Shown in pieces: positions 3,935-21,192 of a stretch of DNA of 64,000 nt (its first letter is position 1; each line of letters opens with the position of its first letter). Origin of the DNA: Bacteroidia bacterium. GTDB taxonomy: Bacteria > Bacteroidota > Bacteroidia > UBA8524. Below the pieces are notes generated by a model. The model was not told where the DNA came from. It was given only the letters and a program-made list of their open reading frames with translations, and did no database searches. A program made the translations under genes and the position numbers. The stretch covers positions 50,944 to 114,943 of the forward strand of contig JAMIFM010000029.1 of NCBI GenBank assembly GCA_035906255.1, in the 5' to 3' direction.

Positions 3935-3935
3935 G

Positions 3936-4877: not shown

Positions 4878-5120
4878 ATGAAACGACTTAAAAACTTTTT
4901 TGCCATTGTCTATAAAAACCGCAGGACTTCGTTTGCGGGGCTGGTGTGCTTAATTGCCGCACGGCTGTTTTATACCGCCCAAATCTCCACCGAAGAATTT
5001 TTATCGGTAATGGGCTTTTGCTCTGCTTTGGGGTTCTTTCTTGCCAAAGACGGGCAAACCCAAACAGAATACGACAAAGAACATAAAACAGGGGCATACA
5101 CACGATGGGGGGGCAAGTGA
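4878..5120 (+). CDS. Small two-TM membrane protein (holin-like by size and topology only)
   Basis: 80 aa with two hydrophobic helices. Starts right after the upstream stop and lies upstream of the muramidase. Confidence 0.45.
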   Translation: MKRLKNFFAIVYKNRRTSFAGLVCLIAARLFYTAQISTEEFLSVMGFCSALGFFLAKDGQTQTEYDKEHKTGAYTRWGGK

Positions 5121-5671
5121 GGATAAAATACATTCTTATCTGCCTTTTACTGGCCGCTGTAATCGTATTTGTGTATTCCCTTAAATGCGATAGGTCGGAT
5201 AAGCCACCGACCGCAGCTTACCGACCGCCGACCGATACATGGGTTACTATCCCGCGCAGTGTCCATACTACCGACACGGTTACAAAAACCCTGTACGTTC
5301 CGATTGTGCAAACACCGCCCCACGATACGGTATTTATCGGAATAGATACCGCCCAAATCCTCCGTGAATATTTTACCAATAGCCTTTACAAAGAGGTGTA
5401 CTCGGACAGTGCTATGGAGATAGAAATTACCGACAGCATTGCCCACAACCGCCTTGTGTCCCAAAGTGTGCGCTACAAAACCAAAATCCCCCCTGTACCC
5501 CCTGCCGTTCAACTTTGGGCGGGGGTAATTGCCGATACCCGCAAAACAACAGGGGTGGCCTTGTACCTGAAAGACAAAAAACAACGGTTGTACGGGGTGG
5601 GGTTCTCTACCGATAAATCCGTTTGTTTCAGTGTGGCCGTGCCCCTTTTTAAAACAGGAGGCACACGCTGA
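5105..5671 (+). CDS. N-terminally anchored protein (188 aa)
   Basis: TM helix ILICLLLAAVIVFVY. 16-nt overlap with the upstream ORF across a G7 run (5107-5113). Confidence 0.5.
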   Translation: MGGQVRIKYILICLLLAAVIVFVYSLKCDRSDKPPTAAYRPPTDTWVTIPRSVHTTDTVTKTLYVPIVQTPPHDTVFIGIDTAQILREYFTNSLYKEVYSDSAMEIEITDSIAHNRLVSQSVRYKTKIPPVPPAVQLWAGVIADTRKTTGVALYLKDKKQRLYGVGFSTDKSVCFSVAVPLFKTGGTR

Positions 5672-6300
5672 TGGACGCTGTTTTTGAATTGTGGAACGAG
5701 TACATACTCAAAGAGTGGGAAGGGGGTATTGCCGACCGACCATTGCGCGATGACCCCGGTGGTTTAACAAACAAGGGGGTAACAATTGCCGTTTGGAAGG
5801 AATGGGCTCCCAAGTTATTTGGAATAACAGGCAACGAAACCACCCTGCGCCAACTCACCGAAGCCCAAGCCAAACGGGTGGCTTATGAAATCTACTGGAA
5901 GTTTTACGGCATTGACAAAGTAACCAATCCTGCCATTAAGCTGCTGCTTGCTGACTCAGTATGGGGCGGTGGCGGTTACAGCAGTTTGGGGTACAAAACA
6001 GGCAGTTACGCCCAACGTGCCGCACAAATCAACAAAGACAATCAAGCCAACTCCAACCTGTTTAATGTGCTTGTAAACCGCAGGCTGGCCTATTTGCGCA
6101 GCTTAAAGAACTATGAAGTAAACAAGAACGGTTGGGAAAACCGCGTGTGGAAGGGCGACCCTCAACGCCTTTCATTAACACAGGTGGTAGCCAAATACAA
6201 ACTTAACAACGCCGTAGTAGGTATTAGCTTGGTCAGTGCTATTGCATTGGCATTGGTAGCAAGGGCGGTGTACAAAAAGATTAAAAAGCCAAAGAAATGA
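5671..6300 (+). CDS. GH108-type muramidase / peptidoglycan hydrolase with C-terminal TM anchor
   Basis: N-terminus EWEGGIADRPLRDDPGGLTNKGVT fits the GH108 EGG...D.GG.T..G.T pattern. C-terminal helix VVGISLVSAIALALVARAV followed by a KK-rich tail. Confidence 0.7.
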   Translation: MDAVFELWNEYILKEWEGGIADRPLRDDPGGLTNKGVTIAVWKEWAPKLFGITGNETTLRQLTEAQAKRVAYEIYWKFYGIDKVTNPAIKLLLADSVWGGGGYSSLGYKTGSYAQRAAQINKDNQANSNLFNVLVNRRLAYLRSLKNYEVNKNGWENRVWKGDPQRLSLTQVVAKYKLNNAVVGISLVSAIALALVARAVYKKIKKPKK

Positions 6301-7073
6301 ACCTGCCAAAATTTAAGAACCAGCACGAAGTAAACCAGTATATCCAAACCTTTATCGCCCAAAAAGACGGTAAAGGGGAAGGATATACCACAGAAGACAA
6401 GGAACTGATAGCCCGTTATTCGGGTAGCGGCGGTCTTGCCTCCAAAGGGGCGAAAGCAGACGCAGGGCTACTGTATGAATTTTATACCCCTGATTGGCTT
6501 TGCGGATTAATGTGGAAACTTGCCCTGCATCACGGATATGACGGGGGAACGGTATTAGAACCTTCGTGTGCTACGGGTAATCTTTTTAAAGATGCCCCCG
6601 ATGAAAGTAAATGTGTGGGGTTCGAGACCAATCCCACCACTGCACGTATCGCCCAAATCCTTTATCCCAAAGCAACCATACATACTGGCTATTTTGAAAC
6701 GGCCTTTTTAGACCCCCCGCGTTTTGTCTCTAAACTCAAAGGCAAAACAACGTGGTTGAAAGAATACCCTTTTTCTTTGGTTATCGGCAACCCACCGTAT
6801 GGCCTTTACAAGAACCGTTACAGCAGCTACTTTGATAAAAGACTGTTTAAACAGGTAGAGATATTTTTCATTTACCAAGCCCTACAACTGCTCACTTCGG
6901 GCGGGCTATTGGTGTACTTGTTAAGCCAAAACTTTTTACGTACCGGCGATAAGTACAACAATGCAAAAGAGGCCATCGGAAAATATGCCGACCTGATAGA
7001 TGCTTACCGACTGCCCAAAGTATTTACACATTCGGATGTGCCTACCGATATACTGGTTTTGAAAAGGAAATAG
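6297..7073 (+). CDS. N6-adenine DNA methyltransferase (gamma-type motif order)
   Basis: EFYTP, then AdoMet motif LEPSCATGNLF, then catalytic VIGNPPYG. Confidence 0.8.
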   Translation: MNLPKFKNQHEVNQYIQTFIAQKDGKGEGYTTEDKELIARYSGSGGLASKGAKADAGLLYEFYTPDWLCGLMWKLALHHGYDGGTVLEPSCATGNLFKDAPDESKCVGFETNPTTARIAQILYPKATIHTGYFETAFLDPPRFVSKLKGKTTWLKEYPFSLVIGNPPYGLYKNRYSSYFDKRLFKQVEIFFIYQALQLLTSGGLLVYLLSQNFLRTGDKYNNAKEAIGKYADLIDAYRLPKVFTHSDVPTDILVLKRK

Positions 7074-7076
7074 CAG

Positions 7077-7298
7077 CTAATCGTCAAATATTGAAGTATA
7101 AGGCTTTATAAGGGTGAGGTTTTCTATTTCATCAACTTTTACATATTCCCTTTCCAGTGTAATGTGATTAAAAAACCGAAATGTCTGATTTGAATGGCTG
7201 AACTCTGAAAAGTAAGTCCCTTCGCAGTAAATGCCCTCCTTAGTAAAGAAGCTAATTTCATCAAGATAACTAAGTTCTTTCACTGAAACCTCTTTCAT
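7077..7298 (-). CDS. Hypothetical small protein on opposite strand (moron-like)
   Basis: The only reverse ORF inside the block. AT-rich. Start taken at MKEVSV. No motif. Confidence 0.4.
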   Translation of the reverse strand: MKEVSVKELSYLDEISFFTKEGIYCEGTYFSEFSHSNQTFRFFNHITLEREYVKVDEIENLTLIKPYTSIFDD

Positions 7299-7352
7299 AC
7301 CCCACAAAGATATAGCCTAAAGAAATAGGTAAAACATTTTAAGTTTTTAACA

Positions 7353-7565
7353 ATGACCGACAACCAAATACAACAACTAAGAACCGAAGTGCGCAAGGAG
7401 CTGCAAAACCTTGCCCCTTCCATATATCCATATTTTTCAAAGCTGGCAAAGGATGGCGACGGTTTAAACCAAGCAGAAGCAACGGTAATAGGATACATGG
7501 CAAAAAATGCCGTATCGGTGATGAGTGCCATTGCCCAATTGGAGGGGGAATATGAAGCGGGATAA
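7353..7565 (+). CDS. Hypothetical protein (70 aa)
   Basis: ORF whose end overlaps the helicase start. No motif. Confidence 0.45.
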   Translation: MTDNQIQQLRTEVRKELQNLAPSIYPYFSKLAKDGDGLNQAEATVIGYMAKNAVSVMSAIAQLEGEYEAG

Positions 7566-10500
7566 ACACCACGTATCACAGCATCCCAAGTTTGTAAGGG
7601 GCAGGCTCAAAGCATTTGCACACTTCATTGAGACGCTTCCAGATACCGAGGACAAGCACAGCCCCCGCGAACTTTTAAAAATGGGGTTTGTACACCCCGA
7701 TATTGAATACAACGTATCGGCCAAAACCGCACAGTTCGGGGTCAGCCAATCCGAAGCCCCCTTGACCTTTACAGAACTTACCAATTATTCGACGTGGTTT
7801 TATATACACCCCGAAAAAGTAGCAGGCCATGAAACGATAGTTACCTCGCGTGATTTTCCGATAAAAGTAAACGGCGACCGACAAACCATTACCAATACAA
7901 TTACACAAAACCTGCATATTTCATCCAATACCCCAAAGCTCCAACCCCAACATCCCGATTCTGATAAAATGAAACGACTAAGGTTAGCCACTGCCAAAGC
8001 AAAAGCACTTGCCCTGAAACTTAAACTGGATACCAACGCAATAAACGGGGTAGAAAGCGGTTCCCACATCGGCCAAAAATCGGCTCAAAATCGGCAAAAT
8101 ATCGGTGGTTTTCCGCCCTTAGACCCTGCCGTATATGAACTGCTAAAAACCCTGCCTTATGAAAAGGTATCGGGGTTATCGGGATTAGGTAAGCTAACCC
8201 CCGCCAAAGGCCAAAAACAACCCATGCTTTCCTTCAAAGAAGTGGATGAATTGTACAACGCAGGCATTACTACCGAAGAAAAGCAGGCGTGGGTGTATTA
8301 TCAAAAATCCAAAGGCAATAAAATGTTGGGGTGGGATAAGTACGATACCGGAAAACCCTCACCGCAAAAGATTACGGAATTGATGGAAAAAGGGGCGTTG
8401 TTTTACTTAGGCGGGGAATTATTGCCCTATCCTGTGTACTCCTACGGTAATATCTACGACCGACTGATAGACCTTGAAAAAGACAAAGCAGACATTGTAG
8501 ATACCTTTGGCCAAAAGGCATTTGAAGCCCATAAAAAGGCATTGGATACTGCCAAGCCCAAAGAAATAAGCGTACGTGCCCCCGATATTAAAGACCGTCC
8601 TAAAATCTCGGTGGTTTCAAAGTTTGCCTCAAATGAATTATCGTTTAAGATATACGGGTTAAACGAAGCATTGGTAGATGTTTCCTTACCCTCTGATGCT
8701 GCCAGTGAAGGAATATCCCTGCAACGGGCATTCTCGGCATGGATGAAGAAATTGGACGATACCCAATTTCAAAACGTAACTGCCTACGAAATCCAACGGT
8801 ACTACTTAGAAGCCCGCAATTACCCTCGTGGGATGGAAGAAGCCGAAAAGGAACTTATCGAGCAATACGCACCATTAGAGGGAGAACAACTCTTTTCGCG
8901 TTTCCTCTTTGAAGCCTTAACCGACGAAGACAAAGTAAAATTAGACTTTACGTGGAACCGCCAATACAACGGTCAAAGTTCGGTACAATACCAGCGCATC
9001 CCCGTAGGTTTTGAATGCTCCGCCATATTTAAAACCGCCCCCCTTTCCATTACCCCCATACAACGCGAAGGTATTGCCTTTATGACTGCCGTAGGCAGTG
9101 GCTTAATTGCTTACGATGTAGGGGTAGGTAAAACCATGACCGCCATTATCAATATTGCCAATGCCCTATACAGCGGTAAATGCAAACGTCCCCTAATTGT
9201 AGTTCCTAACCCCACCTATAACAAATGGTTAAAAGAACTTTTCGGGTACACCGATAAAGTTACAGGCCAAGAAATTTCAGGGGTGCTGACAGGAACGGGT
9301 TACCAGCTAAACGAATGGTACAATTTGGGAACGGACGTGCAAGGCAAAATTAACCTTAAAAACCCCGTTGCCGAAAAATCCGTTACCGTCCTTACCTACG
9401 AAGGGTTTATGCGTTTGGGGTTCTCTCAAAAACTAATGGAAGGGCTTTTTGAAGACCTTTCCCATATTATCCACCAAACTGACCCCGATAAAGGGGAAAC
9501 AAAACGGGACATTGCCAAACTCAATCAAAAGCTGGAGGAACTAATCGGCGGCTCTAACAAGGAAACGGTAGTCAATGTGGATGATTTGGGGTTTGACTTT
9601 ATCTGTGTGGACGAAGCCCACAACTACAAAAACGTTTTCAGTTATGTACCCCCCGATGAAGAAGGCAACAAACGCTTCAAATTCGACGGCGGCCAAAGCG
9701 CAAGGGCGCAAAAGATGTTCTTTATCACCAATTACATACAGCGCACCTATGGAGCGAATGTAATGATGCTGACGGCTACCCCTTTTACCAACAACCCGAT
9801 GGAAATCTATTCCATGCTCTCAATGGTGGGGTATGAAAACATGAAAAAGTACGGTGTTCGCAACCTGTACGATTTTATGGAAACCTTTATCAATCAGTCC
9901 TACGAGTATGTAATGACCTATCAGGGGGATATTGCCAAAAAGCACGTGGTAAAATCGTTTAACAACCGTTTGGTGTTGCAACGCTTGATATACAACCACA
10001 TTAACTACAAAACAGGCGAAGAGGCAGGGGTCAAACGACCTTGTAAAATCAACCTGCCCCGCACCACTAAAACGGACGAGAAAACAGGACTGCCCATAAA
10101 GCTACCCCCCAACGAGCAGGTAGTGACTTACCTGCAAATGACCGAAGAGCAGCAAACCAACCAAGCCTTTATTAACGACCATCCCAACAAAGTATCAAGG
10201 CTGGAAAAGCTAAAGGCCATTATGCGCTGTTTGGGCTGGAGCTTGGACAATGCGCTGTCCCCCTTCATCTTTACCAAAGAAACCCCTGCGGATTATAAAG
10301 AGTTTGTAGAGAAAAGCCCCAAAATCATGTACACCGTTGCGTGTATCCGTTCGGTAAAGCAATGGCACGAAAAGCGGAACGAACCCGTTTCAGGACAGGT
10401 TATCTATATGAACCGAGGCAAAGAGTACTTTAAGTACATTGTCGAATACCTTGAAAAAGAACTTGGCTTTAAGCCCTCTGTAAAATACAGGGGGGCAACG

Positions 10501-11751
10501 GTGAGCGAAGTGGAGGTAATCACTTCGGAAATTTCCCAATCCCGCCGTGAAATCATCAAAGATGCCTTTTTGGACGGGGTAGTAAAAGTAATTATCGGCA
10601 CGGCTACTATCCGCGAAGGGATTGATTTGCAGCGCAAGGGGACGGTGCTGTACAACTGCTACCCCGATTGGAACCCCACCGATGCTAAACAGTTGGAAGG
10701 ACGTATATGGCGGCAAGGAAATGAATACGGTTATGTAAGGGTGGTAATGCCCTTAGTTCAGGACTCTATGGACGTCTTTGTATTCCAAAAGCTGGAAGAG
10801 AAAACCCAACGGATTAACGATATATGGTACAGAAGCGACCGAGGCAATGTATTGGATTTGGATAGTTTGGATACCGAAGAGGTAAAATTTGCCCTTTATA
10901 CCAATATTGCGGAACTGGCCAAAATTGCCTTAGAGAAAGAACAGCGAGAACTGGACAACCAGCTCAAAATACTAAAATCCCAAATTGATACGGTCAATAA
11001 CGTTGCAGTTTACAAAGCAGGGCTATTAAAATACCGCGAGGAATGTAACAAATACCCGAATAACTGGCGGATTAGTTTAATGAACTTTTTAGCCAACTCT
11101 GCCGAAAACCAAGCTCCCCTGTGGAGCAAAACGGTAAAGGAAATGGAAGAAATTAGGGAACGTGCTTTTGAGCTTGCCAAAGAAATAGACGCTTACATGG
11201 TGCAGCCCCAACAAACCGACCGCGAACTATTGAACCTGTACCGTAAAGTATCCCCGACTGTTTTTGCCACCCGTTATATCCTAACTATACCGCATTCTAC
11301 TTTTGAAAGCCTTAAAATCTATATGGGTGCTATTGCAAAAGCGGAGAAAACCGTATTTGAGGCAAAAGGGTATTCAATGGATACAGATTTTGAGGTGGTG
11401 AAAGAACAACTGGTGCAAGAGCAGAACCGCATTGAAGAACTTTACGCCCAACTGAAAAGCCCCGAAAATTATTCCCGCATCACCGAGGATATTATCCGCA
11501 AAAAGCAAAAACTAAAAGTAAGCGGTCGTTTACCGCAAACAGCGGCAATGGACTTTGCAGGATTAAACCACCTGTTAGCCTATCAGTTTAATCCTACCGA
11601 CAATGGAAGTTGCATTATCCCGTTGCCCGGTGCTGCACCCAAACCCAAACCCCAAAACACCGAAGCTGATGACAGGGAACGTCGCAAACGCCTTGCGCTT
11701 GCAAAAGCAAAAGCCCTTGAACTTAAAATCAAATTATTAAACGTAGCTTAA
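7552..11751 (+). CDS. SNF2-family helicase-like protein, about 1400 aa, with long unassigned N- and C-terminal regions
   Basis: Walker A DVGVGKTMTAI, motif II CVDEAHNYKN, motif III LTATPFTNNPMEIYS, C-lobe GTATIREGIDLQ and WNPTDAKQLEGRIWRQGN. ATG at 7552 is preferred to the GTG at 7525. Confidence 0.85.
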   Translation: MKRDKHHVSQHPKFVRGRLKAFAHFIETLPDTEDKHSPRELLKMGFVHPDIEYNVSAKTAQFGVSQSEAPLTFTELTNYSTWFYIHPEKVAGHETIVTSRDFPIKVNGDRQTITNTITQNLHISSNTPKLQPQHPDSDKMKRLRLATAKAKALALKLKLDTNAINGVESGSHIGQKSAQNRQNIGGFPPLDPAVYELLKTLPYEKVSGLSGLGKLTPAKGQKQPMLSFKEVDELYNAGITTEEKQAWVYYQKSKGNKMLGWDKYDTGKPSPQKITELMEKGALFYLGGELLPYPVYSYGNIYDRLIDLEKDKADIVDTFGQKAFEAHKKALDTAKPKEISVRAPDIKDRPKISVVSKFASNELSFKIYGLNEALVDVSLPSDAASEGISLQRAFSAWMKKLDDTQFQNVTAYEIQRYYLEARNYPRGMEEAEKELIEQYAPLEGEQLFSRFLFEALTDEDKVKLDFTWNRQYNGQSSVQYQRIPVGFECSAIFKTAPLSITPIQREGIAFMTAVGSGLIAYDVGVGKTMTAIINIANALYSGKCKRPLIVVPNPTYNKWLKELFGYTDKVTGQEISGVLTGTGYQLNEWYNLGTDVQGKINLKNPVAEKSVTVLTYEGFMRLGFSQKLMEGLFEDLSHIIHQTDPDKGETKRDIAKLNQKLEELIGGSNKETVVNVDDLGFDFICVDEAHNYKNVFSYVPPDEEGNKRFKFDGGQSARAQKMFFITNYIQRTYGANVMMLTATPFTNNPMEIYSMLSMVGYENMKKYGVRNLYDFMETFINQSYEYVMTYQGDIAKKHVVKSFNNRLVLQRLIYNHINYKTGEEAGVKRPCKINLPRTTKTDEKTGLPIKLPPNEQVVTYLQMTEEQQTNQAFINDHPNKVSRLEKLKAIMRCLGWSLDNALSPFIFTKETPADYKEFVEKSPKIMYTVACIRSVKQWHEKRNEPVSGQVIYMNRGKEYFKYIVEYLEKELGFKPSVKYRGATVSEVEVITSEISQSRREIIKDAFLDGVVKVIIGTATIREGIDLQRKGTVLYNCYPDWNPTDAKQLEGRIWRQGNEYGYVRVVMPLVQDSMDVFVFQKLEEKTQRINDIWYRSDRGNVLDLDSLDTEEVKFALYTNIAELAKIALEKEQRELDNQLKILKSQIDTVNNVAVYKAGLLKYREECNKYPNNWRISLMNFLANSAENQAPLWSKTVKEMEEIRERAFELAKEIDAYMVQPQQTDRELLNLYRKVSPTVFATRYILTIPHSTFESLKIYMGAIAKAEKTVFEAKGYSMDTDFEVVKEQLVQEQNRIEELYAQLKSPENYSRITEDIIRKKQKLKVSGRLPQTAAMDFAGLNHLLAYQFNPTDNGSCIIPLPGAAPKPKPQNTEADDRERRKRLALAKAKALELKIKLLNVA

Positions 11752-11752
11752 T

Positions 11753-12469
11753 ATGATAGCCATTACCCCCAAAAACCTAACTACCGCCCCTATTAATTGG
11801 GCGTTATTACCCAAAGACCTGCAATCAGAAAAAGAGAACCTTGAACTCTACGAAGAATTTTACGACGAAGACACGTCTATCAAACAGAACGTGGATAAAC
11901 TGATAGATGTAATCAAGAAAACCCACAAAGAGGCAGGAAACAAGCCCGCCCCAAAAAAAGCAAGGGGAGTGAAAAAGCTACCTAAAGTTAAAGCCCCTGC
12001 TAAAACCAAACTGCCACGAAAAAAAAAGAGGACGGTAAAAAGGACTGCCGCCCCAAAGAAGAAAAAGGCAGCGGCCAAAAAGACGAAACGCAAAGCCATT
12101 GTAAAAACTAAAATCAAAGTGGTTAAAGAAAAAGCCCTTGTGAACGTTAAGAAATACAGCCTTGAATTACAACTGATAAAGTCTTTTATCGCCATGAAAG
12201 GCAAAGACCGCAAAGTAACCGCCATCCGTAACTTTTTAAAAAGGATAGAATCGGCTAAAAGCAATACCAACGTATCTTCTCAAAAATCCCTGCTTACCGT
12301 TATTGCCCAACGCATGAAAACAGCATTGGCAGGATTATCGGATAATGTGGAATTTGTGCGCAATATCAACATTGCTGAAGATTTGTTAAAGAAATGCAAG
12401 GAGGCTGTGAAAAATGCCAAGCCAAGATTACAAGTGCAATACTTATCGGGTTTGAAGCCAAAAAAGTAG
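11753..12469 (+). CDS. Lysine-rich, histone-H1-like probable DNA-binding protein (238 aa)
   Basis: Central roughly 70-aa tract KPAPKKARGVKKLPKVKAPAKTKLPRKKKRTVKRTAAPKKKKAAAKKTKRK. Starts 1 nt after the helicase stop. Confidence 0.55.
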   Translation: MIAITPKNLTTAPINWALLPKDLQSEKENLELYEEFYDEDTSIKQNVDKLIDVIKKTHKEAGNKPAPKKARGVKKLPKVKAPAKTKLPRKKKRTVKRTAAPKKKKAAAKKTKRKAIVKTKIKVVKEKALVNVKKYSLELQLIKSFIAMKGKDRKVTAIRNFLKRIESAKSNTNVSSQKSLLTVIAQRMKTALAGLSDNVEFVRNINIAEDLLKKCKEAVKNAKPRLQVQYLSGLKPKK

Positions 12470-13149
12470 GTAGGGCGGACAGTCCGCGGACACGTCCGAC
12501 GGGTAGTCCGTCCGTAAGAAAATTAGCTATATCGGGGTTTACTCCCATAAATGAAATACAGCCTGCAAAGGGCACTTTTAGCTTAAAAGGCGACCTGGGC
12601 AGGTTCTTAGGGAACTTGGAACGCTATAAGCTGGCCATCACCCTTGAGGGCGACCAAGGTTCAGGTAAAACCCAATTTGCGTTTCAGTTGGCCGACGGGT
12701 TTGCGGATTTGGGAATGAAAATCGGGTTTTACTCCTTAGAAATCGGAGCAAACTCCAATATCGTAATGACCAATCGCGATAAATACCTAAAACCTGCCAA
12801 CCGTGAACGTTTGTTTGTGAGTGAGGAAAACTCACTAAAAGACGTTCGGGAAAAGGCAAAGGTTTTTGATGTGATTATTATCGACAGTTGGACAAAGCTG
12901 GACGTGGATAGTTCAGAGTTTGATAAGCTGAGAAAGGATTTTCCGAACTGCATTTTTATTGTGATTTTTCAACGTACCTCACAAGGGAAAATACGCGGGG
13001 GAACTAAACCGTTGTACGATGCCGGAATAAATATCATGATTCACAAAGTGGACAATACTTTTACGAACAACTACGCCGATTGTACTAAAAACAGGTATGG
13101 GCAAACGGGTTTGCAGTATAATGTCAGCCAAAAACGGCTGGTAGGATAG
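12394..13149 (+). CDS. RecA/DnaB-like P-loop ATPase
   Basis: Walker A GDQGSGKT, FYSLEI (DnaB-like H1a), Walker B VIIIDSW. The only in-frame ATG lies 76 nt inside the upstream gene, so the true N-terminus is uncertain (see frameshift finding). Confidence 0.7.
   Translation: MQGGCEKCQAKITSAILIGFEAKKVGRADSPRTRPTGSPSVRKLAISGFTPINEIQPAKGTFSLKGDLGRFLGNLERYKLAITLEGDQGSGKTQFAFQLADGFADLGMKIGFYSLEIGANSNIVMTNRDKYLKPANRERLFVSEENSLKDVREKAKVFDVIIIDSWTKLDVDSSEFDKLRKDFPNCIFIVIFQRTSQGKIRGGTKPLYDAGINIMIHKVDNTFTNNYADCTKNRYGQTGLQYNVSQKRLVG
12460..12466 (+). other. Candidate -1 ribosomal frameshift slippery heptamer A_AAA_AAG
   Basis: In the zero frame of 11753-12469 the sequence reads cc[A AAA AAG] TAG. The -1 frame continues as KKVGRAD, which is the ATPase ORF. 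A GC-rich CGGAC/GTCCG cluster starts about 7-10 nt downstream. Confidence 0.45.
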
Positions 13150-13197
13150 AATTAAGTATATTTGCTTTCCTTGTTTAAGGAAAATTGCAATCGACAG

Positions 13198-13225
13198 GCC
13201 GCAGGGATGCGGCTTTTGCTTTTTT
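13198..13225. terminator. Bidirectional terminator hairpin
   Basis: GCCGCA-GGGA-TGCGGC followed by a T-run. Sits between convergent genes. Confidence 0.65.
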
Positions 13226-13959: not shown

Positions 13960-14004
13960 GGGTGTTATCACCCTTGTTCTGAAAGCCCACCCCCGTTACC
14001 TTTG
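13960..14004 (+). promoter_or_regulatory. Operator-plus-promoter head 1
   Basis: GGGTGTTATCACCCTTG (inverted GGTG-N4-CACC overlapping a -33 TTG), a 20-nt spacer, then the -7 box TACCTTTG at 13997-14004. Confidence 0.45.
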
Positions 14005-14010: not shown

Positions 14011-14107
14011 TTTTGATTTTTAGTTGTGCACCTATGTATATACTATCAAATTGCACTTGTTGATGTGTCATCACAAGATTAAAACCGCTCCAATGGGCGG
14101 TTTTTTT
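14011..14107 (+). ncRNA. Candidate short hairpin-terminated transcript 1 (about 95 nt)
   Basis: Lies between promoter head 1 and intrinsic terminator ACCGCTC-CAAT-GGGCGGT plus T7 (14084-14107). Internal hairpin CTTGTTGATG/CATCACAAG. The 5' end is inferred. Confidence 0.3.
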
Positions 14108-14136: not shown

Positions 14137-14181
14137 GGGTGTTTTCACCCTTGATAACTCAGCCTTCGCCTTCTATTTTTG
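14137..14181 (+). promoter_or_regulatory. Operator-plus-promoter head 2
   Basis: GGGTGTTTTCACCCTTG, a 20-nt spacer, then -7 box TATTTTTG (14174-14181). Same geometry as head 1. Confidence 0.45.
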
Positions 14182-14187
14182 TCCCGT

Positions 14188-14280
14188 GTGTATTATTTTA
14201 AAACATTGATTTGATAAATTATCTATCCCAAGATATATAATCAAATTTCCACGAAGGCAGCAGGGATGCAGCCTTTTTTA
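14188..14280 (+). ncRNA. Candidate short hairpin-terminated transcript 2 (about 90 nt)
   Basis: Long AT hairpin ATTTGAT...ATCAAAT with inner TATCT/AGATA, then terminator GGCAGCA-GGGA-TGCAGCC plus T6 (14256-14279). The 5' end is inferred. Confidence 0.3.
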
Positions 14281-14310
14281 GTATCGTCTATTCTTTAGCA
14301 CTCAAAAAAT

Positions 14311-14355
14311 GGGTGTTTTCACTGTATTAATTTCTTTAGTATAAAAATACATTTG
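14311..14355 (+). promoter_or_regulatory. Operator-plus-promoter head 3 (degenerate)
   Basis: GGGTGTTTTCAC retains only the left half of the repeat. -7 box TACATTTG at 14348-14355. Confidence 0.3.
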
Positions 14356-14482
14356 CAATACTGCATTTTAATGGCTGTTTGTCTCTTTACCATAAAACGT
14401 TCTTTATACAGGCATAGTAGCAGTATGTTTCTAAAAACAACGTGTTGTTGAACCAGTGTTGGTGTTGTAATTGGTAGTTTAC

Positions 14483-14490
14483 TACCTTTG
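14483..14490 (+). promoter_or_regulatory. -7 promoter box TACCTTTG
   Basis: Exact match to the Bacteroidota TAnnTTTG consensus. TTG candidates lie 15-21 nt upstream. Positioned about 80 nt before the structured RNA. Confidence 0.4.
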
Positions 14491-14567
14491 TGTAAATGAT
14501 AAACTCTTTAGAAACATCAAAACTTAGTCAATAAGGATAACATATAACGTGTCCTGATGATAGTCCC

Positions 14568-14725
14568 TGTTAGGAAATCGGCGAAAATTTAATAACACGG
14601 CGGACTGGCATCCGAGGACATACCCTCAAAAAAGGGTATGTTGCTCAATGCTATTGCCGTGTTGGGTTCTTCGCCGAACCTCCTAACGCAATCAGCAAAG
14701 GGTGCATACCCTTTTTGAGTTTTTA
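14568..14725 (+). ncRNA. Candidate structured RNA / cis-regulatory leader with intrinsic terminator
   Basis: Nested helices: 14569-75/14681-87 (7 bp), 14578-85/14670-77 (8 bp), 14594-602/14655-63 (9 bp), 14606-10/14648-52 (5 bp), apical 14618-26/14633-41 (9 bp). Terminator AAAGGGT-GCAT-ACCCTTT plus T-run at 14697-14725. Class unknown. Confidence 0.45.
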
Positions 14726-15009
14726 AAAGTTTACCCAATAAAAAGTATCATTTTGCAGTTTTTCGTAAAATTAATAATAGCTGTTGCGATTTTTACCAAT
14801 TGCAGGAAAATACTATGAGATATTTTCGAAAACCATTTATACCTAAACAAAAAGAGCAACGATTATATAGCTATAACAATGATATTATAACTGTATAAAT
14901 TATTCAATCTAATCATATAGCATTGTGCTAAAGAAATTGCATGAAAAAGTTAAACCCAATTATTATATGTATTTCTATTATGAAAAAAGTAACTAAACAC
15001 AATTCATCT

Positions 15010-15822
15010 ATGAAAACCTTTGCAGGTAAAATCATCCTTGCTTCGGCATTCCTTCTATCTGTAATTTCAATCAAAGCACAACGTTGCGGGGTCAATGGCA
15101 TAACCTTTACCCAACAAGCAGGGTTTGGTAACAATAGCCAAATTATTATCGGCGGTTATGGCCAAAATGACGGTGCAATCAATTTTAACTGCTACAGCGA
15201 CAGTTCTGTTTATGGCCGTTCACGTATCTTCAACCGCCCTGTGGGTATGCTACCGCCTGCGGGTAGCCCCGTCCCCACATGGAGTTCACGGGTATTTCAG
15301 GACTTGCCTGCGGGCATCCTACGTATTCAAACCAGTGGGGTGAACAACGCTTGTTATGACTCTGTGAACTGGAACCGTGGGCTTACGATGCACACAAGTG
15401 GCAATGTAGGCATCGGTGCGAACCCCGTTTCGGGTTTTATGCTGGCGGTAAACGGCGGTATCGCCTGTAAAAACGATGTGTTTATCACCCTGACAGGCAT
15501 CACATGGCCTGACTATGTTTTTACACCTTCATACCGCTTAAAACCGCTTGCCCAATTAGAGCAAGAAATTGACAGCTTGGGACATTTACCTGAAATGCCA
15601 TCGGCGCAAACTGTGGAAGCCGAGGGAATGTCAGTAACAGACATTACAACTACCGTAGTTAAAAAGGTAGAAGAATTGACGCTCTACACCATCGACCAGC
15701 AGAAACAACTCGATGCGTTGGCGAAGGACAATGCCGACCTGAAAAAACAAACCGAGAAGTTGCTAAAGCGTAACGAAGAACTAAACGCTTTGGTTGAACG
15801 TCTTTTAAAAGAAAAAGAATAA
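15010..15822 (+). CDS. Secreted fibre-like protein with conserved C-terminal WPDYVF...HLPEMPS...EELTLY coiled-coil module
   Basis: Signal peptide MKTFAGKIILASAFLLSVISIKAQ (the ORF also opens at 14941 and 14980). The C-terminal 105 aa are homologous to the tail of 44038-45174. Confidence 0.7.
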   Translation: MKTFAGKIILASAFLLSVISIKAQRCGVNGITFTQQAGFGNNSQIIIGGYGQNDGAINFNCYSDSSVYGRSRIFNRPVGMLPPAGSPVPTWSSRVFQDLPAGILRIQTSGVNNACYDSVNWNRGLTMHTSGNVGIGANPVSGFMLAVNGGIACKNDVFITLTGITWPDYVFTPSYRLKPLAQLEQEIDSLGHLPEMPSAQTVEAEGMSVTDITTTVVKKVEELTLYTIDQQKQLDALAKDNADLKKQTEKLLKRNEELNALVERLLKEKE

Positions 15823-15844
15823 CTTTGAATAAATAACTTAATCA

Positions 15845-16639
15845 ATGCGTTTCCTTCTTTTTGTTTTGATTGTATTTTGGTTTATTTTAGGTTTAAGTAG
15901 TTGTAAAAAAGATTCTCCAGAAACAATACAGCCTGAACCTACCCCGAAACCGTATTATAATTGCAGGGTTTTGATAAATGACATCCGCGATGAGTTTGGA
16001 AATTTCGTAAAATTTGATACCCATATAAAAATGTTGGTAACAGACTCTATCGGAGATACTGTTTATACGGATTATTACTCAGCAAGTAAGACAGATATAA
16101 CTTTTCCGTTAACCATTGGCACATACACTATTGCAATATTTGATACAACTGAAAACTGGGCACCGTATTACATAAATCATAAGGTCTATCCACCAAGAGG
16201 TGGAGAGCCAAATATGTATACGATAGGGATGACAAAGCAACCAAAGTATAAGTTAAAAGTGGTTTCAACAATAGATACAACGGCAATAATCAATAGGTTT
16301 ACAAAAGAAAGGTATATTATTCTAAATTTAGTATCTACGGATACTGTGAATAAATCCTATTTTATTGCACATATATTTAAGAAACCGCAAAGTTATCCCA
16401 TAAATGACCCTTCAATTTTAACAGGCTTTTATAGTTATATTGAAAATGGCAAGGGTCATGTTTCGTTGAGTCTTTTAGATGCAAGCCATGAATTTATTGC
16501 CAAAGGTGATACATTTTACGTGGTTTTAGTTGAAGCTGCGAATAGTTGGTATTTCTGTTCAAAGACAGAAGGCTTTGGCAATAGGGTTTACTATAACGCT
16601 ACTGGTAAATCAGTACAAAACTTTCAATTCGTAAATTAG
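15845..16639 (+). CDS. Lipoprotein (264 aa), unknown function
   Basis: Lipobox LGLSSC. No counterpart in the paralogous operon. Confidence 0.65.
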   Translation: MRFLLFVLIVFWFILGLSSCKKDSPETIQPEPTPKPYYNCRVLINDIRDEFGNFVKFDTHIKMLVTDSIGDTVYTDYYSASKTDITFPLTIGTYTIAIFDTTENWAPYYINHKVYPPRGGEPNMYTIGMTKQPKYKLKVVSTIDTTAIINRFTKERYIILNLVSTDTVNKSYFIAHIFKKPQSYPINDPSILTGFYSYIENGKGHVSLSLLDASHEFIAKGDTFYVVLVEAANSWYFCSKTEGFGNRVYYNATGKSVQNFQFVN

Positions 16640-16641
16640 CC

Positions 16642-17436
16642 ATGAAAAGTTTAAAATTCTTATTTGTAGTAGTCTTAATAGGTTATTTAATTTTTTTCAA
16701 TACAAGTTGCAAAAAAGAAAAATGCCAAGACCCGACAAACCCTGAATGTGAGAACTACGACCCCTGCTACGGCGAAAAGCCCGTAATGGCAGAAATCGTT
16801 CTCTCGCAGCGGGCAGAACCCAGTTCAAGTGGAGTATTAGGAAAATTATACCTCAATGAAGGAGGAGATGTATTTCCTCGAATGCAAATCCGTTTCCATT
16901 GCCCGCTGGAAGGCGCAAAATATACATGGACATTGGGTGCGGAAACCATTACAGAGCAAACCTTTGAGCGGAATTTTTTTACTGTTCCATACGGCGTTTA
17001 TACAGTGAAACTCATTGTAGAGAAATCCCCCAACACCAATTGTTATCCGAGTGATGACGGCTTCGATACGGTGATAAAAACCTTCGAAATAGTTCCTGTA
17101 TGTGAATTAGAAACTATAGGGATTTTTAAGGGTAAATGGGACGGCGTCCCACAATTGGATAGTTCAGTTATTACATTTCGCTCATATAGAGATGCTTCAT
17201 ACTCAGATAGCTGTTCATTTGGACTTCCTGTATTTACAAACCTTCAGAACAAGGGGGACACATTGTATGGTGCTTATACCTACATATCGAATAAAGAGGT
17301 TGTTAATTACCACCCAGGCCATTTGGGGATAGGTAATCTAAATCTGAATGTAAATCCTCTAACAAAAGTTGTGGTACTTGATTACTACATTGGAACAACG
17401 CACTTTTTATTTAAGGGCAGGAAAATAGCTAATTAA
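16642..17436 (+). CDS. Lipoprotein (264 aa), paralogue of 43215-44030
   Basis: Lipobox FNTSC. Shares YTW..G, C.P.DD and a C-terminal F.G[KR][KR] pattern with the 271-aa lipoprotein. Confidence 0.65.
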   Translation: MKSLKFLFVVVLIGYLIFFNTSCKKEKCQDPTNPECENYDPCYGEKPVMAEIVLSQRAEPSSSGVLGKLYLNEGGDVFPRMQIRFHCPLEGAKYTWTLGAETITEQTFERNFFTVPYGVYTVKLIVEKSPNTNCYPSDDGFDTVIKTFEIVPVCELETIGIFKGKWDGVPQLDSSVITFRSYRDASYSDSCSFGLPVFTNLQNKGDTLYGAYTYISNKEVVNYHPGHLGIGNLNLNVNPLTKVVVLDYYIGTTHFLFKGRKIAN

Positions 17437-17452
17437 CAGAACCAATTACCTT

Positions 17453-20272
17453 ATGAAAAAAATTAAACAACGGCTGCTGTTAGCAGTAGCCTTGGTGTCA
17501 TACATCTGCTCATTCGGGCAAGATTGTGTACGCCTGATACGCACCAAATACGACAGTGCGCAAAACAATGAACTCTCTCCCTTTTTCCCGGGTAAAATCA
17601 ACCCGTGGTTAAACAGCTTTGACTTTGCACGTATAGACAACGGCACTGCATTTCATGACATCGACCTTAACCCGCTTGCAGGATGGATTATTCCCGGAAT
17701 GACGGGCAGCAATTACAAAATGAAAAGCCCGTTCAGCGTAGCTATGGCCTCTGAATACAATTATTTGAGCAGGCCATTTGGAGGAGGTAGCTCGGTGTAC
17801 GATGCAGATATTTGGTGGGAAGACGGATGGGAACTAATGTGGATGAACACAGGTTATTTTCCTAATGGAGACCCCGTTAACGTAGCTGATACAAACCGTA
17901 TTTTGAAGGGTAGTTATGGGTTAGCAAATCCAAGAACTCCATATATTATTTTATACAATCGTTATACGGGGAAGCTGAGAGTGTTTGCTAATTTATTTAC
18001 TGATTATAACAATTATAAAGACATCAGTATGGTATTAAAGCATACTCAGGGGTTAGATAAATCAGGTATATTCAGGCATTTGTTAAATTATGACTATTCT
18101 CTCGACCAACCAAGTAACATAATAGAGGTTCGCTCGTTTAATCACAACGAAAACAACAATACCTTGTGGTGGTCATCAGACTTTCAATTGGGTTATGACC
18201 CTTGTGTTTGTGAAAAGGAAAGCACAATCGATTTTTATTTTTGGGCACGTAAAAATCAAAATATTAATCTATATGGACGGATTGTTCAGCAGGATATGGA
18301 TTTATCGGTATTGGGCAATCCTGACTATAAAAACTTTCTTGCTAATGAAGCAGTAAATAGTGCTGCAAATGGAGCAGAAGGAGGAACACTGCTATTCAAA
18401 CGGTTTGATAGCTTGCTGGTGAAATACGACCGCGAGCTGGAATTATACAATACCCAACTCAACAGTTATAACCATCCGTTCAATTCGACCATGCGCACTA
18501 TCCTTAAATCCGCAAAAGATGGGGTAAGTGCCGCAGGGGGTGCGTTTGTTGCTAAACCATTGGGCGACTTCTTTTTACGCCAACTCGTAAAAATCGACGG
18601 TCCTACTAAGAAAGACACCACCACTGCATCAGGTTGGGCAGAAGAGGTGAACAAAGCTACCAAAGGTCAGTTAGGTAAAGCGTTTGACTTTTTGTCAATG
18701 GCGGCTTTGGGCGATGATTTTACCAAAGAACCGCAACGCCCCTCCATGCCGACCGCTACTTTCAGCGAAATGAAAATTGCTGGGGTAATCTCTGACTCAG
18801 GTTTTGTGAATGTATCGAATTTTTTAACACCCGGCTCATACAAATACCCGCAGCAATTAACTGCATATAATTACCCTGCCTACAATAATGCCGTGGGCTT
18901 ATACGCCCTATTGCGTAAGCCAGCAGTAAAAGGGCTGCGCGACCAGTTTCCAACCCGCACATTGGTATCCCTTGACACGGTGTTAGTCGATACCGTGGTT
19001 ACAGGCAGCATCAAGGTAATAAATATCCGTACCAACGAAGTAAATACCGTTGAGCATCATAACAAACTGTTTTTGAATGTTGCCGAGCCGTTGAAATACA
19101 AACTCAACAAAGCCCTCGATTTTGACATGGATAAAACCAAACTTTACGTGTCATTTTCCGTTGAGTTGGAAAACACCATCCCCAACGGTGACAACTGCTT
19201 TACGCTGCACCTGACCGAAGACAACGAAAACTTTTACCTACGGGACGTTATTCCTGTGCCAGCCACAACATCCTACCAGTTGTTTTATGAAACCCCGTGG
19301 AAAAATATCGAAGACATTGGCGACCATTTCTTCAAGATGGATTTCAAGAATAGCTACGAAGCATTTGGAGTGAGAAAAACATCATTGACGGTGTTTGAGG
19401 GCGACACAACCGTAAATGTGGGTGAACTGAAAGAATGCGTGGATGAAACCCAAGCCTCGTTCAAAATCAAAAAAATCAAAATGAAAGTGGCAGCCGATAT
19501 GTATTTTGACCAGTTGGGGTCGAACGGGTTGCAGAACAATAATTTCCAAACCTTCACCTATCTGTTGTTCGACCCTGCAAATGAAATTAACTGGATTACC
19601 GATGCGCCCGACTCGTCAGATGTAAAACGCAGGAAAGTAGATAATCTGTCATTGACCAACGAAGTGATTGAACCCACCGACCCGTTTGTATTTGAAACCA
19701 ACGGCAATACCTTAATCATCAATGCAAAAAATATCGACCTTAGCGGCACTATTAGTGTGCAATCGGGGTTTGATGCCGTATTGCAGGCTACCGGAAACAT
19801 CACGGGCATCAGCAGCAACACCAGCATTGGCCGTGACATCCGCCTGAAAAACGTCAGCGGATATTCACCTTTCGGTAAAAACTACGAAACCACCGAACAG
19901 GAATTGACCGACTATTGTAAAGACGGTGAAAACGGCTACCAAGCTCATAAAGCTGCTAATAAAATGGCAGAAGAGGCGACATCTGAATCACCAGCCGAAA
20001 CAGCAGAGGAAAAAGAAATAACGGTTTCCGTCTATCCAAACCCTACGCAAAACCGTTTGTTTGTTAGCACTTCGGCTGACGATGATAAAGAATATAGCTT
20101 TGCGGTAATTGATTTAATGGGACGCTCCCTTATTAATGAGACTGTTAGAGGCGCAAACCAACCGCAGTTTGAAATCACCACCGATGCACTGGCAGCAGGC
20201 ACATACCTGCTAATCATTAAAACGTCAGACGGTGAGGTAAACCAAGCACACCGAATAGTTATTCTGAAATAG
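17453..20272 (+). CDS. Large secreted protein with type-A T9SS C-terminal sorting domain (939 aa); N-terminal 850 aa unassigned
   Basis: Signal peptide. CTD VSVYPNPTQNRLFV...AAGTYLLIIKTSDGE...IVILK. Homologous to 40686-43202. Confidence 0.8.
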   Translation: MKKIKQRLLLAVALVSYICSFGQDCVRLIRTKYDSAQNNELSPFFPGKINPWLNSFDFARIDNGTAFHDIDLNPLAGWIIPGMTGSNYKMKSPFSVAMASEYNYLSRPFGGGSSVYDADIWWEDGWELMWMNTGYFPNGDPVNVADTNRILKGSYGLANPRTPYIILYNRYTGKLRVFANLFTDYNNYKDISMVLKHTQGLDKSGIFRHLLNYDYSLDQPSNIIEVRSFNHNENNNTLWWSSDFQLGYDPCVCEKESTIDFYFWARKNQNINLYGRIVQQDMDLSVLGNPDYKNFLANEAVNSAANGAEGGTLLFKRFDSLLVKYDRELELYNTQLNSYNHPFNSTMRTILKSAKDGVSAAGGAFVAKPLGDFFLRQLVKIDGPTKKDTTTASGWAEEVNKATKGQLGKAFDFLSMAALGDDFTKEPQRPSMPTATFSEMKIAGVISDSGFVNVSNFLTPGSYKYPQQLTAYNYPAYNNAVGLYALLRKPAVKGLRDQFPTRTLVSLDTVLVDTVVTGSIKVINIRTNEVNTVEHHNKLFLNVAEPLKYKLNKALDFDMDKTKLYVSFSVELENTIPNGDNCFTLHLTEDNENFYLRDVIPVPATTSYQLFYETPWKNIEDIGDHFFKMDFKNSYEAFGVRKTSLTVFEGDTTVNVGELKECVDETQASFKIKKIKMKVAADMYFDQLGSNGLQNNNFQTFTYLLFDPANEINWITDAPDSSDVKRRKVDNLSLTNEVIEPTDPFVFETNGNTLIINAKNIDLSGTISVQSGFDAVLQATGNITGISSNTSIGRDIRLKNVSGYSPFGKNYETTEQELTDYCKDGENGYQAHKAANKMAEEATSESPAETAEEKEITVSVYPNPTQNRLFVSTSADDDKEYSFAVIDLMGRSLINETVRGANQPQFEITTDALAAGTYLLIIKTSDGEVNQAHRIVILK

Positions 20273-20861: not shown

Positions 20862-20962
20862 TCTCCTTTAGAGGAAGACGACTTTGGGAACGTCGGGTTA
20901 AGTGATAATTGGGTAGGGGTAAATCAAACCTCCCTCAGTCCCTCCTTGCTTAAGGAGGGAAG
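20862..20962. repeat. Intergenic direct repeat, copy 1 (about 95 nt, hairpin mosaic)
   Basis: GACGACTTTGGGAACGTCGGGTTAAGTGATAATTGGGTAGGGGTAAATCAAACCTCCCTCAGTCCCTCC... is near-identical to copy 2. Confidence 0.75.
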
Positions 20963-21012
20963 CCACGCGCAAGGCCATTTACCCCGTCCTAATAATTGTT
21001 TTACTGGCAGTA

Positions 21013-21118
21013 TCCTTCCCCTGTAGGGAAGATGACTTTGTGAACGTCGGGTTAATTGATAATCGGGTAGGGGGTAAATCAAACCTCCCTCAGTCCCTCC
21101 TGTTTTAGGAGGGGCTAG
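21013..21118. repeat. Intergenic direct repeat, copy 2
   Basis: GATGACTTTGTGAACGTCGGGTTAATTGATAATCGGGTAGGGGGTAAATCAAACCTCCCTCAGTCCCTCC... Begins with hairpin CCTTCCCCTGTAGGGAAG. Confidence 0.75.
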
Positions 21119-21192
21119 GGGAGGTCGAAATATGTTATTCCCGCCTGCACGGGATGACGGGTAGGGGTCTTTCGACAGGCTCAAGACGGAAG

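Follow-up and report, generated by a model that had tools for sequence, protein, structure and literature searches.

The stretch of DNA analysed in this report (hereafter the window) comprises 64,000 nucleotides (nt) from a Bacteroidia bacterium (GenBank assembly GCA_035906255.1, contig JAMIFM010000029.1, positions 50,944 to 114,943 of the forward strand) and carries, on its + strand and just upstream of a gene cassette that starts at 14941 (cassette A), a structured RNA of about 230 nt. This RNA lies 0.5-1.7 kb downstream of a module made of a DarB-like helicase, a 240-amino-acid (aa) protein and a Sak4-like NTPase, and 160-290 nt upstream of an operon on the same strand, an arrangement found in all four loci compared here. 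To our knowledge, little has been mapped of the regulatory RNAs in Bacteroidota or in the mobile elements of this phylum, where riboswitches supply most known cases of transcription attenuation. The first important finding is that the RNA can form two mutually exclusive folds—a long rod and a pair of hairpins—and that the conservation of both through compensatory change is well supported by the comparison of homologues. As to function, we give an even chance to the model in which the RNA is a three-tier transcription-attenuation leader of the trp type placed before a cargo operon, with a 3' hairpin as terminator, the rod as antiterminator and a 5' hairpin as anti-antiterminator.

The comparison covers four distinct sequences of the RNA, from the window and from three further loci (L087, L127 and L132), drawn from three assemblies. 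Homologues were reached by two handles: orthologues of the downstream cassette-A protein (43-88% identity), and the P-loop NTPase, which led to L132 and to L094 and L127, the latter two being identical in the RNA region. L087 belongs to the metagenome-assembled genome (MAG) GCA_008933805.1, in which the cassette protein is 67% identical to that of the window, and it carries the entire intergenic block from 14174 on at 82% identity. L132, a second copy of the element within the same MAG, was scored at 85 bits by a covariance model for which the first three sequences had served as input. Pairing was counted on a structure-blind MAFFT alignment (A8) and on the minimum free energy (MFE) structures of the individual sequences, because the covariance-model alignment (A7) shifts L127 by one column in rod helices P2 and P3. 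The RNA occurs once per locus, at a constant syntenic position, with no other copy in the 64-kb window or in the 133 fetched loci: among 36 metagenome loci fetched for the NTPase only L094 has it, and it is absent from the other 129 fetched loci, as well as from L128, L131 and L133 when these were looked up. DNA pattern scans of viral contigs gave no further copy, blastn against phage and plasmid collections gave no homologue of the RNA, and viral contigs searched for relatives of the NTPase held none. A profile search of genome contigs with the cassette-A protein alignment returned only distant loci, which have the C-terminal tail-fibre-chaperone-like domain in common and of which none carries the RNA. 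The organism of the window is itself rare and uncultured, with few identical contigs, and the family appears small and restricted to uncultured lineages.

Folding of 14560-14730 on the + strand gives an MFE of -71.2 kcal/mol for a structure composed of the rod and a small hairpin, while 200 dinucleotide shuffles average -41.1 +/- 4.1 kcal/mol with none as good (z = -7.4). The rod spans 14568-14688 with about 45 bp and is followed by a U-tract (Table 1). The first-pass annotation of this DNA had listed its helices together with a terminator hairpin and a T-run, and all are present exactly where it placed them or within 1 nt. The same five-helix rod is the MFE structure of each homologue (4/4) although the helix sequences differ, and compensatory changes are present in every rod helix. 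P1 pairs are UGUUAGGA/UCCUAACG, GUACAGA/UCUGUAC, UGCACAGAGA/UCUCUGUGCA and CGUUA/UAACG across the homologues; P2 pairs are UCGGCGAA/UUCGCCGA, UCGCGAG/UUCGCGA and ACGGCCA/UGGCCGU; P3 pairs are ACACGGC/GCCGUGU, CACAGCG/UGCUGUG, GUGUAGC/GCUACAC and AUCCAAA/UUUGGAU; and P5 pairs are CAUACCC/GGGUAUG, CACGCCC/GGGCGUG and CACGCCC/GGGUGUG. On A8, 84.5% of the cells are paired in the rod against 41-50% with slid partners; both members are changed in 14 pairs, where the slid controls give 2-6, and none of 500 shuffles reached the observed values. Judged by this covariation, the rod is a selected structure. Window and L087 differ by frame-breaking indels of 1-2 nt, which excludes a coding explanation. 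The region that takes part in both folds (the switching region) is about 51-75% identical, with small and variable loops and with P1-P3 replaced almost completely.

No Rfam 15 family matches the whole 64-kb window at the gathering score, matches at E up to 10 within 14200-15000 are at chance level (E 2.6-7.3, 11-16 bits), and L087, L127 and L132 have no match at E <= 0.1. Together with the fold energy, this agrees with the first-pass annotation in calling the element a structured RNA of no recognised class, and the homologues, compared for covariation as it had proposed, show compensatory changes in all rod helices. It had also mentioned 6S RNA. The likeness extends to a rod-like shape, a comparable size and a possible closing stem; unlike 6S RNA, the rod has internal loops of 1-3 nt in all four sequences with no large central bubble, matches neither the 6S nor the 6S-Flavo model at E up to 10, and does not sit in a housekeeping locus. 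The 6S alternative is not supported.

With z = -7.1, folding of the reverse strand is almost equally favourable, so fold energy alone does not pick the strand. It might be supposed that the palindrome works as DNA, as a single-stranded hairpin in transfer or packaging (a single-strand promoter or origin), as a recombination site, or as a palindrome resembling a miniature inverted-repeat transposable element (MITE), and the near-equal folding of the two strands, the mobile-element setting with anti-restriction-type genes and the short-read contigs that break on either side would all suit such an element. We give this explanation hardly any weight. The two folds are kept by compensation that includes G.U solutions, which are A.C mismatches on the other strand; the + strand rod is slightly more stable than the - strand rod in 4/4 sequences; a promoter box upstream and a U-tract downstream, both in + orientation, flank it in 4/4; there is a single syntenic copy per locus rather than dispersed copies in the 64 kb and the 133 loci covered; and the stem contains no promoter-like arrangement of hexamers. 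The rod is bracketed by independent Logan short-read contigs that stop at 14448 or begin at 14694, and a contig of another assembly ends at about 13150; the hairpin or strain variation at the junction appears to break assemblies.

The second fold emerged unprompted. Given the first three sequences, RNAalifold returned a two-hairpin fold and not the rod, and when each sequence was split at the apical loop and its halves folded separately, the same architecture resulted in all four. The 5' hairpin (14549-55 : 14615-21, 14556-59 : 14609-12 and 14561-66 : 14602-07) has an energy of -22 to -29 kcal/mol (z = -2.8 to -4.0). The 3' hairpin, of about 40 bp, reaches -39 to -47 kcal/mol (z = -5.1 to -6.8) and consists, from its base inwards, of 14629-41 : 14704-16, 14643-46 : 14700-03, 14649-52 : 14694-97, 14653-57 : 14688-92 and an apical helix 14664-69 : 14676-81. 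The first-pass annotation had missed both the complementarity of the 5' segment 14549-66 to the upper 5' strand of the rod (14602-21) and the capacity of the whole 3' half to fold on itself. What it had seen was that the 3' strand of the apical helix is almost perfectly complementary to the 3' strand of the terminator, and the inverted repeat 14629-40 / 14705-16 is indeed complementary at 12/12 positions.

This second fold is also maintained by compensation. In the 5' hairpin, GAUG/CAUC becomes GAUA/UAUC in L087, with CUUUUGU/GCAGAAG in L132; elsewhere in the fold UAGUCC/GGACUG becomes UAGUUC/GAACUG, AUUGC/GCAAU becomes UUGUG/CACAA and then UUCCGU/GCGGGA, and GGGUUC/GAACCU becomes GGGUAC/GUACCU. 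The basal helix of the 3' hairpin changes from GGGUAUG/CAUACCC to GGGCGUG/CACGCCC. In L132 the apical 5' strand reads CACGCCC and the terminator 3' strand CGCACCC, each of which pairs with GGGUGUG through a different G.U, and these distinct solutions argue for RNA pairing with both partners and against mere copies of one protein-binding site. In the second fold, 87.8% of the cells of A8 are paired and 14 pairs are doubly changed; sliding the partners lowers these figures to 37-50% and 2-6, and none of 500 shuffles reached the observed pairing or double-change counts. The second fold accounts for the conservation of the rod's ACC internal loop and of the facing GGG. Leader excluded, the folds are close in energy, differing by about 6-12 kcal/mol (-64 to -71 vs -71 to -77 kcal/mol). 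A heuristic estimate of the direct-path barrier between them is 42-58 kcal/mol, and in such a model the two would behave as kinetically isolated states. In the MFEs of growing transcripts the 5' hairpin forms first and, once the 3' strand of the rod (segment 3) has been made, the rod displaces it by invading from the apical hairpin.

Which of the folds would end transcription depends on the hairpin next to the U-tract. A terminator scan finds the small hairpin AAAGGGT-GCAT-ACCCTTT (14697-14714) followed by the T-run, and the first-pass annotation built on it the opposite polarity to ours: the rod with the small hairpin as the terminating OFF state, and the 14626-41 / 14705-19 pairing as an antiterminator that turns expression ON once the rod opens. 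In the window, the small hairpin and T-run do fit the terminator consensus, the competing pairing of 12-15 bp is real and conserved, and a long-range helix that encloses about 64 nt might form too slowly for termination. Yet the core of the small hairpin amounts to -3.7, -4.0, -3.8 and -1.0 kcal/mol in the four sequences (-8.7, -5.2, -7.5 and -1.7 kcal/mol with its A:U extension). It is poorly conserved and shows no compensatory change (helix 4 on A8), it is degenerate in L087 and L132 (cores of -4.0 and -1.0 kcal/mol), and the MFE structure of L132 pairs its 5' strand elsewhere. The competing pairing, for its part, leaves a much stronger hairpin before the U-tract and keeps terminator geometry, and the enclosed 64 nt are pre-organised as conserved sub-helices that form a continuous stem. 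In all four sequences the long 3' hairpin ends at the same CCC + UUUUUGAGUUUUU as the small one; being far stronger, it looks like the terminator rather than the antiterminator, and the rod, next to which only a weak and non-covarying hairpin remains, fits better as antiterminator. Hence the mutually exclusive pairing described in the first-pass annotation stands (CAUACCC changes to CACGCCC in L087), but its antiterminator role is not supported, since the pairing is the base of the 3' hairpin, and neither is the small hairpin, with cores of -1.0 to -4.0 kcal/mol, as the terminator. We consider the OFF-rod polarity improbable.

The signals on either side of the switching region bear on transcription. 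The -7 box reported at 14483 in the first-pass annotation is present and of Bacteroidota type, and TACNTTTG stands at the same distance before the RNA in 4/4 homologues. With the published geometry of TAnnTTTG promoters, transcription would start at about 14496, some 6 nt past the box. Upstream of it, an AACAAC-GT-GTTGTT inverted repeat is kept in L087 and L132 and absent in L127. In the leader, a local hairpin (H0), seen in both prefix and full-length MFEs, pairs AGGAUA (14534-39) with GUGUCCU (14549-55) and competes for segment 1, the 5' strand of the 5' hairpin. Leader and segment 1 together are 75-86% identical among the window, L087 and L132, where the switching region has 56-75%; between the two paralogous copies within one MAG the figures are 86% for leader and segment 1 and 57% for the switching regions, which suggests a common trans-acting factor. 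Downstream, the next + strand open reading frame (ORF) starts at 14941, as the first-pass annotation had it, and the spacer before it is 73-92% identical to that of L087 in 100-nt bins, the non-coding block being more conserved between the two loci than the adjoining cargo gene. The spacer motif AAAAGTATCAKTTTGCA is found in L132 and not in L127, and TTYCGTAAA is common to both. At 14933-15032, where the first gene of cassette A starts with three in-frame ATGs, identity to L087 is 98% (46-68% in the remaining gene), so that the 5' end of the gene may be constrained by regulation or recombination.

Further upstream, the promoter-like unit 3 (Table 1) is a possible second promoter for the rod transcript; its motif is kept upstream of the rod in L087, L127 and L132. 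The motif GGGTGTTWTCAC has three copies in the window (13960-14004, 14137-14181 and 14311-14355) and occurs nowhere else in the 64 kb; every copy lies exactly 37 nt 5' of a TAnnTTTG -7 box. It precedes the rod RNA in every homologue (L087:2184 and 2356, L127:4890, L132:8110) and also stands directly 5' of cassette-A orthologues that have no RNA, as GGGTGTTTTCAC in L085 (2891) and as GGTGTTTTCACC in L088 (~3424); it resembles a promoter or operator element specific to the clade. A candidate small RNA (sRNA) of about 95 nt, unit 2, occupies 14187-14282, starting at a promoter-like unit and ending with the terminator GGCAGCAGGGATGCAGCCTTTTTT (14255-80); it contains a long AU-rich hairpin and is nearly identical between window and L087, well over the 67% of the neighbouring protein. 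Relative to L087, the segment 13226-14133 is an insertion; it contains an ORF of 218 aa on the - strand, which matches no family, as well as promoter unit 1 and a bidirectional-looking terminator (14081-14104). In L087, promoter unit 2 directly adjoins the terminator that follows the NTPase gene. That terminator (13197-13220) is kept in L087 and L092, and its hairpin and that of 14255-14276 share an AGGGAT loop and related stems and are 86% identical.

Taken together, these elements suggest the following mechanism. Transcription would start near 14496, after the TACNTTTG box, and the transcript would comprise four consecutive segments that pair either as 1:2 and 3:4 or as 2:3. In the rod state (2:3, 14568-14626 with 14633-14688), the whole 5' strand of the terminator would be locked up, leaving a feeble local hairpin before the U-tract, so that polymerase is proposed to continue mostly into the cargo genes. 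In the two-hairpin state, segment 1 (14549-66) would capture the upper part of segment 2 (14602-21), and the freed segment 3 would zip with segment 4 (14688-14716) into the hairpin of about 40 bp that ends exactly at the U-tract, terminating transcription and releasing an RNA of about 230 nt. The choice of fold would probably be made co-transcriptionally and be set by the availability of segment 1. The likeliest trigger would be a protein or an RNA that binds the leader or H0 (14534-55); a trans-acting factor is more probable than a small molecule. From these data we infer which fold terminates, that the region is transcribed, what kind of trigger acts and that the cargo depends on read-through.

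The nature of the trigger separates this model from a small-molecule riboswitch, in which one fold would contain an aptamer and a ligand would select terminator or antiterminator. The bistable architecture ending in a terminator and the position in a long 5' untranslated region (UTR) before an operon recall the expression platforms of riboswitches, whose mutually exclusive terminator and antiterminator folds are likewise preserved in evolution. Unlike riboswitches, the RNA lacks a conserved core that could bind a ligand: internal loops and junctions are small and differ in sequence among the four homologues, P1-P3 are almost wholly changed, and this lack of conservation at the unpaired positions of the switching region makes a small-molecule riboswitch unlikely. 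Moreover, the operons downstream are mutually unrelated and do not encode metabolic or transport functions, and no riboswitch family of Rfam matches. We therefore hold a small-molecule riboswitch to be very improbable. Two other candidates within segment 1 were set aside: a hammerhead-like CUGAUGA is replaced by CUGAUAA in L087 and by CUUUUGU in L132, and hammerhead models give no match; a leader peptide, for which ATG 14556 opens an ORF of 11 codons in the window and 13 codons in L127, has ATA in its place in L087 and is absent in L132.

A stronger competitor to the attenuation model, although we think it distinctly less probable, is a stable stand-alone sRNA of about 230 nt that acts in trans and always ends at the U-tract. 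The two-hairpin fold would then be a co-transcriptional intermediate whose 3' hairpin secures termination, after which the released RNA would rearrange into the more stable rod, with leader and tail paired to close it, and the rod or the leader would act as a protein sponge, an anti-defence decoy or a base-pairing regulator. The A-rich leader does pair with the U-rich tail in all four full-length MFE structures, closing the molecule, as expected of a released stable sRNA; the rod is the thermodynamic ground state; a hairpin stands directly before the U-tract in both folds of the window and L127; the intergenic region, with more promoter-plus-terminator units, resembles an sRNA island; and the neighbours are anti-restriction-type genes, namely a DarB-like methylase and helicase. 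On the other side, a barrier as high as that estimated between the complete folds would make refolding after release very slow, and the rod state of L132 and L087 leaves almost no terminator hairpin (-1.0 to -5.2 kcal/mol), which is hard to square with an RNA that always terminates. An sRNA would also leave unexplained both the same-strand operon 160-290 nt downstream in 4/4 loci and the conserved spacer of window and L087, and it has no identifiable target or protein partner.

Several observations, besides the loss of the leader peptide and the closure of the molecule by its leader, weigh against attenuation. With its A:U extension the small hairpin reaches -7.5 to -8.7 kcal/mol in the window and L127, so that the rod state may, in such estimates, still terminate appreciably there, in which case nothing would be regulated. 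Equilibrium folding prefers the rod at every length once segment 3 exists, so the terminator fold needs kinetic trapping or a stabilising factor. A leader-binding factor common to all loci is made less likely by L127, whose leader shares just 43-47% identity with the others. RNAduplex found the rod RNA to pair with the upstream sRNA units 1 and 2 no better than with shuffles, and with unit 3 about 1.8 standard deviations better, which is not significant; no clear antisense promoter was found for the RNA. The spacer has no exact TAnnTTTG, which would have been an argument for read-through but is uninformative, only 5 of 27 genes in the window having one upstream. Finally, four sequences from three assemblies make for thin statistics, and significance of the R-scape type cannot be claimed.

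Comparison with known systems highlights important similarities and differences. In Bacillus subtilis, the infC-rpmI-rplT leader, which responds to L20 (PMC1865079), and the rplJL leader, which responds to L10(L12)4 (PMC4538822), are protein-dependent and combine a terminator, an antiterminator and an anti-antiterminator. As in trp-type three-tier attenuators, segments pair here as 1:2 and 3:4 or as 2:3, and the terminator hairpin is followed by a U-tract; as in the infC and rplJL leaders, about 200 nt of leader precede an operon, and the decision is presumably taken during transcription through a trans-acting factor. Characteristic of attenuators are also the hairpin with its U-tract, the conserved mutually exclusive pairing, and the promoter motif upstream with a co-oriented gene downstream, all found at this locus. 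Compared with three-tier attenuators, helix length is much greater here, at about 45 bp in the antiterminator rod and about 40 bp in the terminator; a leader peptide and an identifiable protein-binding mimic are missing, and the setting is a mobile element of Bacteroidota with interchangeable cargo operons, where regulation is proposed. In kind, the RNA would be a transcription-attenuation leader, and it lies outside any curated RNA family; what is unusual is the length of the competing helices, the lack of a recognisable sensor, and the position as a putative portable gate before interchangeable cargo.

Two further parallels can be drawn. In the immunity system of phage P4, the CI RNA is a processed RNA of about 69 nt that acts in trans on nascent transcripts, its seqB being complementary to seqA and seqC of the same leader. 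The RNA described here resembles it in its mobile-element locus, in the complementarity of 14626-41 to both upstream 14617-26 and downstream 14704-19, and in the link to premature termination; unlike in CI, the pairings are plausibly intramolecular, and the two have no sequence or structural homology. In hok-type mRNAs, conserved metastable folds form co-transcriptionally and the 5' and 3' ends pair. Here, too, a metastable 5' hairpin would come first, followed by a more stable long-range fold, and the ends possibly pair, but in contrast to hok-type mRNAs there is no toxin ORF and no antisense partner.

Table 1. Features of the RNA and of its surroundings, with positions in the window.
Feature	Position	Strand	Remarks
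LamG / virion-protein-like ORF	1364-2326	+	weak match
GH108 endolysin	5671-6300	+	
N6-methylase fragment	6297-7073	+	DarB-like matches; adjoins SNF2 helicase
SNF2 helicase	7525-11751	+	1408 aa
Upstream promoter-like unit 3	14311-14355	+	GGGTGTTTTCAC, then TACATTTG 37 nt on; no terminator before rod RNA
Inverted repeat AACAAC-GT-GTTGTT	14436-14449	.	about 33 nt 5' of -7 box; candidate operator
-7 box TACCTTTG (promoter P4)	14483-14490	+	Bacteroidota-type; motif match
5' leader with local hairpin H0	14496-14548	+	candidate trigger-binding site
Segment 1 (L) GUGUCCUGAUGAUAGUCC	14549-14566	+	5' strand of putative anti-antiterminator hairpin; pairs with 14602-14621
Segment 2, rod 5' strand (P1-P5)	14568-14626	+	upper part 14602-21 alternatively pairs with segment 1
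Rod helix P1	14568-75 / 14681-88	+	
Rod helix P2	14578-85 / 14670-77	+	extension 14586-89 / 14665-68
Rod helix P3	14593-603 / 14654-64	+	
Rod helix P4	14606-11 / 14648-53	+	
Rod GAG/CUC pairing	14614-16 / 14644-46	+	
Rod helix P5	14617-26 / 14633-42	+	loop CAAAAA
Rod apical loop CAAAAA	14627-14632	+	pairs with first U-run in alternative fold
Segment 3, rod 3' strand	14633-14688	+	5' strand and apex of long 3'-domain hairpin in alternative fold
Segment 3 parts in 3' hairpin	14643-46, 14649-52, 14653-57	+	GCUC, UGCU, AUUGC
Segment 4, 3' strand of 3'-domain hairpin	14688-14716	+	also holds small local hairpin 14697-14714
Segment 4 parts	14688-92, 14694-97, 14700-03, 14704-16	+	GCAAU, AGCA, GGGU, GCAUACCCUUUUU
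U-tract UUUUUGAGUUUUU	14712-14725	+	kept in 4/4 homologues; putative 3' end of terminated RNA of about 230 nt
Spacer, U-tract to first cargo ORF	14726-14940	+	presumed read-through 5' UTR

Window positions 1-13149 look like part of a phage or of an integrative and conjugative element (ICE), all genes being on the + strand and G+C content being 44-50% against 38-45% elsewhere in the window. L087 has the same genes upstream of the RNA as the window (an SNF2 helicase, a protein of 238/239 aa and a P-loop protein). The P-loop NTPase (188 aa, 92% identical to the protein of L087) has a weak AAA_24 match below the Pfam cutoff (E = 0.0016), from which we take it to be Sak4-like, and matches an ATPase family of PHROGs; the ORF start at 12394 is probably wrong, with the true start near 12583. 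Searches against Pfam, NCBIfam and PDB with the 238-aa protein, the NTPase and the cargo proteins yielded no hint of RNA binding or regulation. The operons that follow the RNA are mutually unrelated, with three kinds across four loci: cassette A in the window and L087, two lipoprotein paralogues and a secreted protein in L127, and proteins of 229 aa and 1435 aa in L132. Conversely, four loci with cassette-A orthologues (L085, L086, L088 and L089) have unrelated upstream regions and no RNA, which is accordingly no leader of cassette A as such. The placement upstream of cassette A in the first-pass annotation thus holds for the window but does not reflect a fixed association, two homologues preceding unrelated operons. 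By this comparison of loci, the RNA appears to sit at the junction of a conserved mobile-element backbone and variable cargo.

Cassette A (14941-20272) has a paralogue, cassette B (40686-45174, - strand), which has no rod RNA upstream. The first proteins of the two cassettes share a C-terminal domain that is elsewhere annotated as tail fibre or endosialidase chaperone, and the last protein of cassette A bears a sorting domain of the type IX secretion system, its counterpart in cassette B being a paralogue. Cassette A also contains a tandem duplication of a 264-aa gene that is not in L087. G+C-rich intergenic repeats occur at 20873-21189, 26656-26690 and 40029-40059, with two tandem copies of about 155 nt (86-91% identical) and pieces 5.5 kb and 19 kb from the tandem pair, one of them inverted; they look like a family of repetitive extragenic palindromic (REP) or MITE type.

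What this means for the biology of these elements can be stated at several levels. Because the family appears to have few members, all from uncultured lineages, its reach is limited for now. A bolder proposal, which we regard as unlikely though clearly more than a formal possibility, is that the RNA represents a new class of factor-responsive gate in the backbone of phage- or ICE-like elements of Bacteroidota, linking expression of captured cargo to the element's state, be it entry, induction or immunity, with a protein or RNA encoded by the element or the host choosing between kinetically isolated folds of about 40 bp. The released rod RNA may also have a second function in trans, such as diverting host defence as a double-stranded RNA decoy. 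The RNA would exemplify two complete global folds that are both held by selection, at the point where a conserved mobile-element backbone meets interchangeable operons of cargo genes for secreted or surface proteins. If the read-through gate is true, it would explain how newly captured cargo comes under the control of the element, and it would do so by means of a compact and portable switch.

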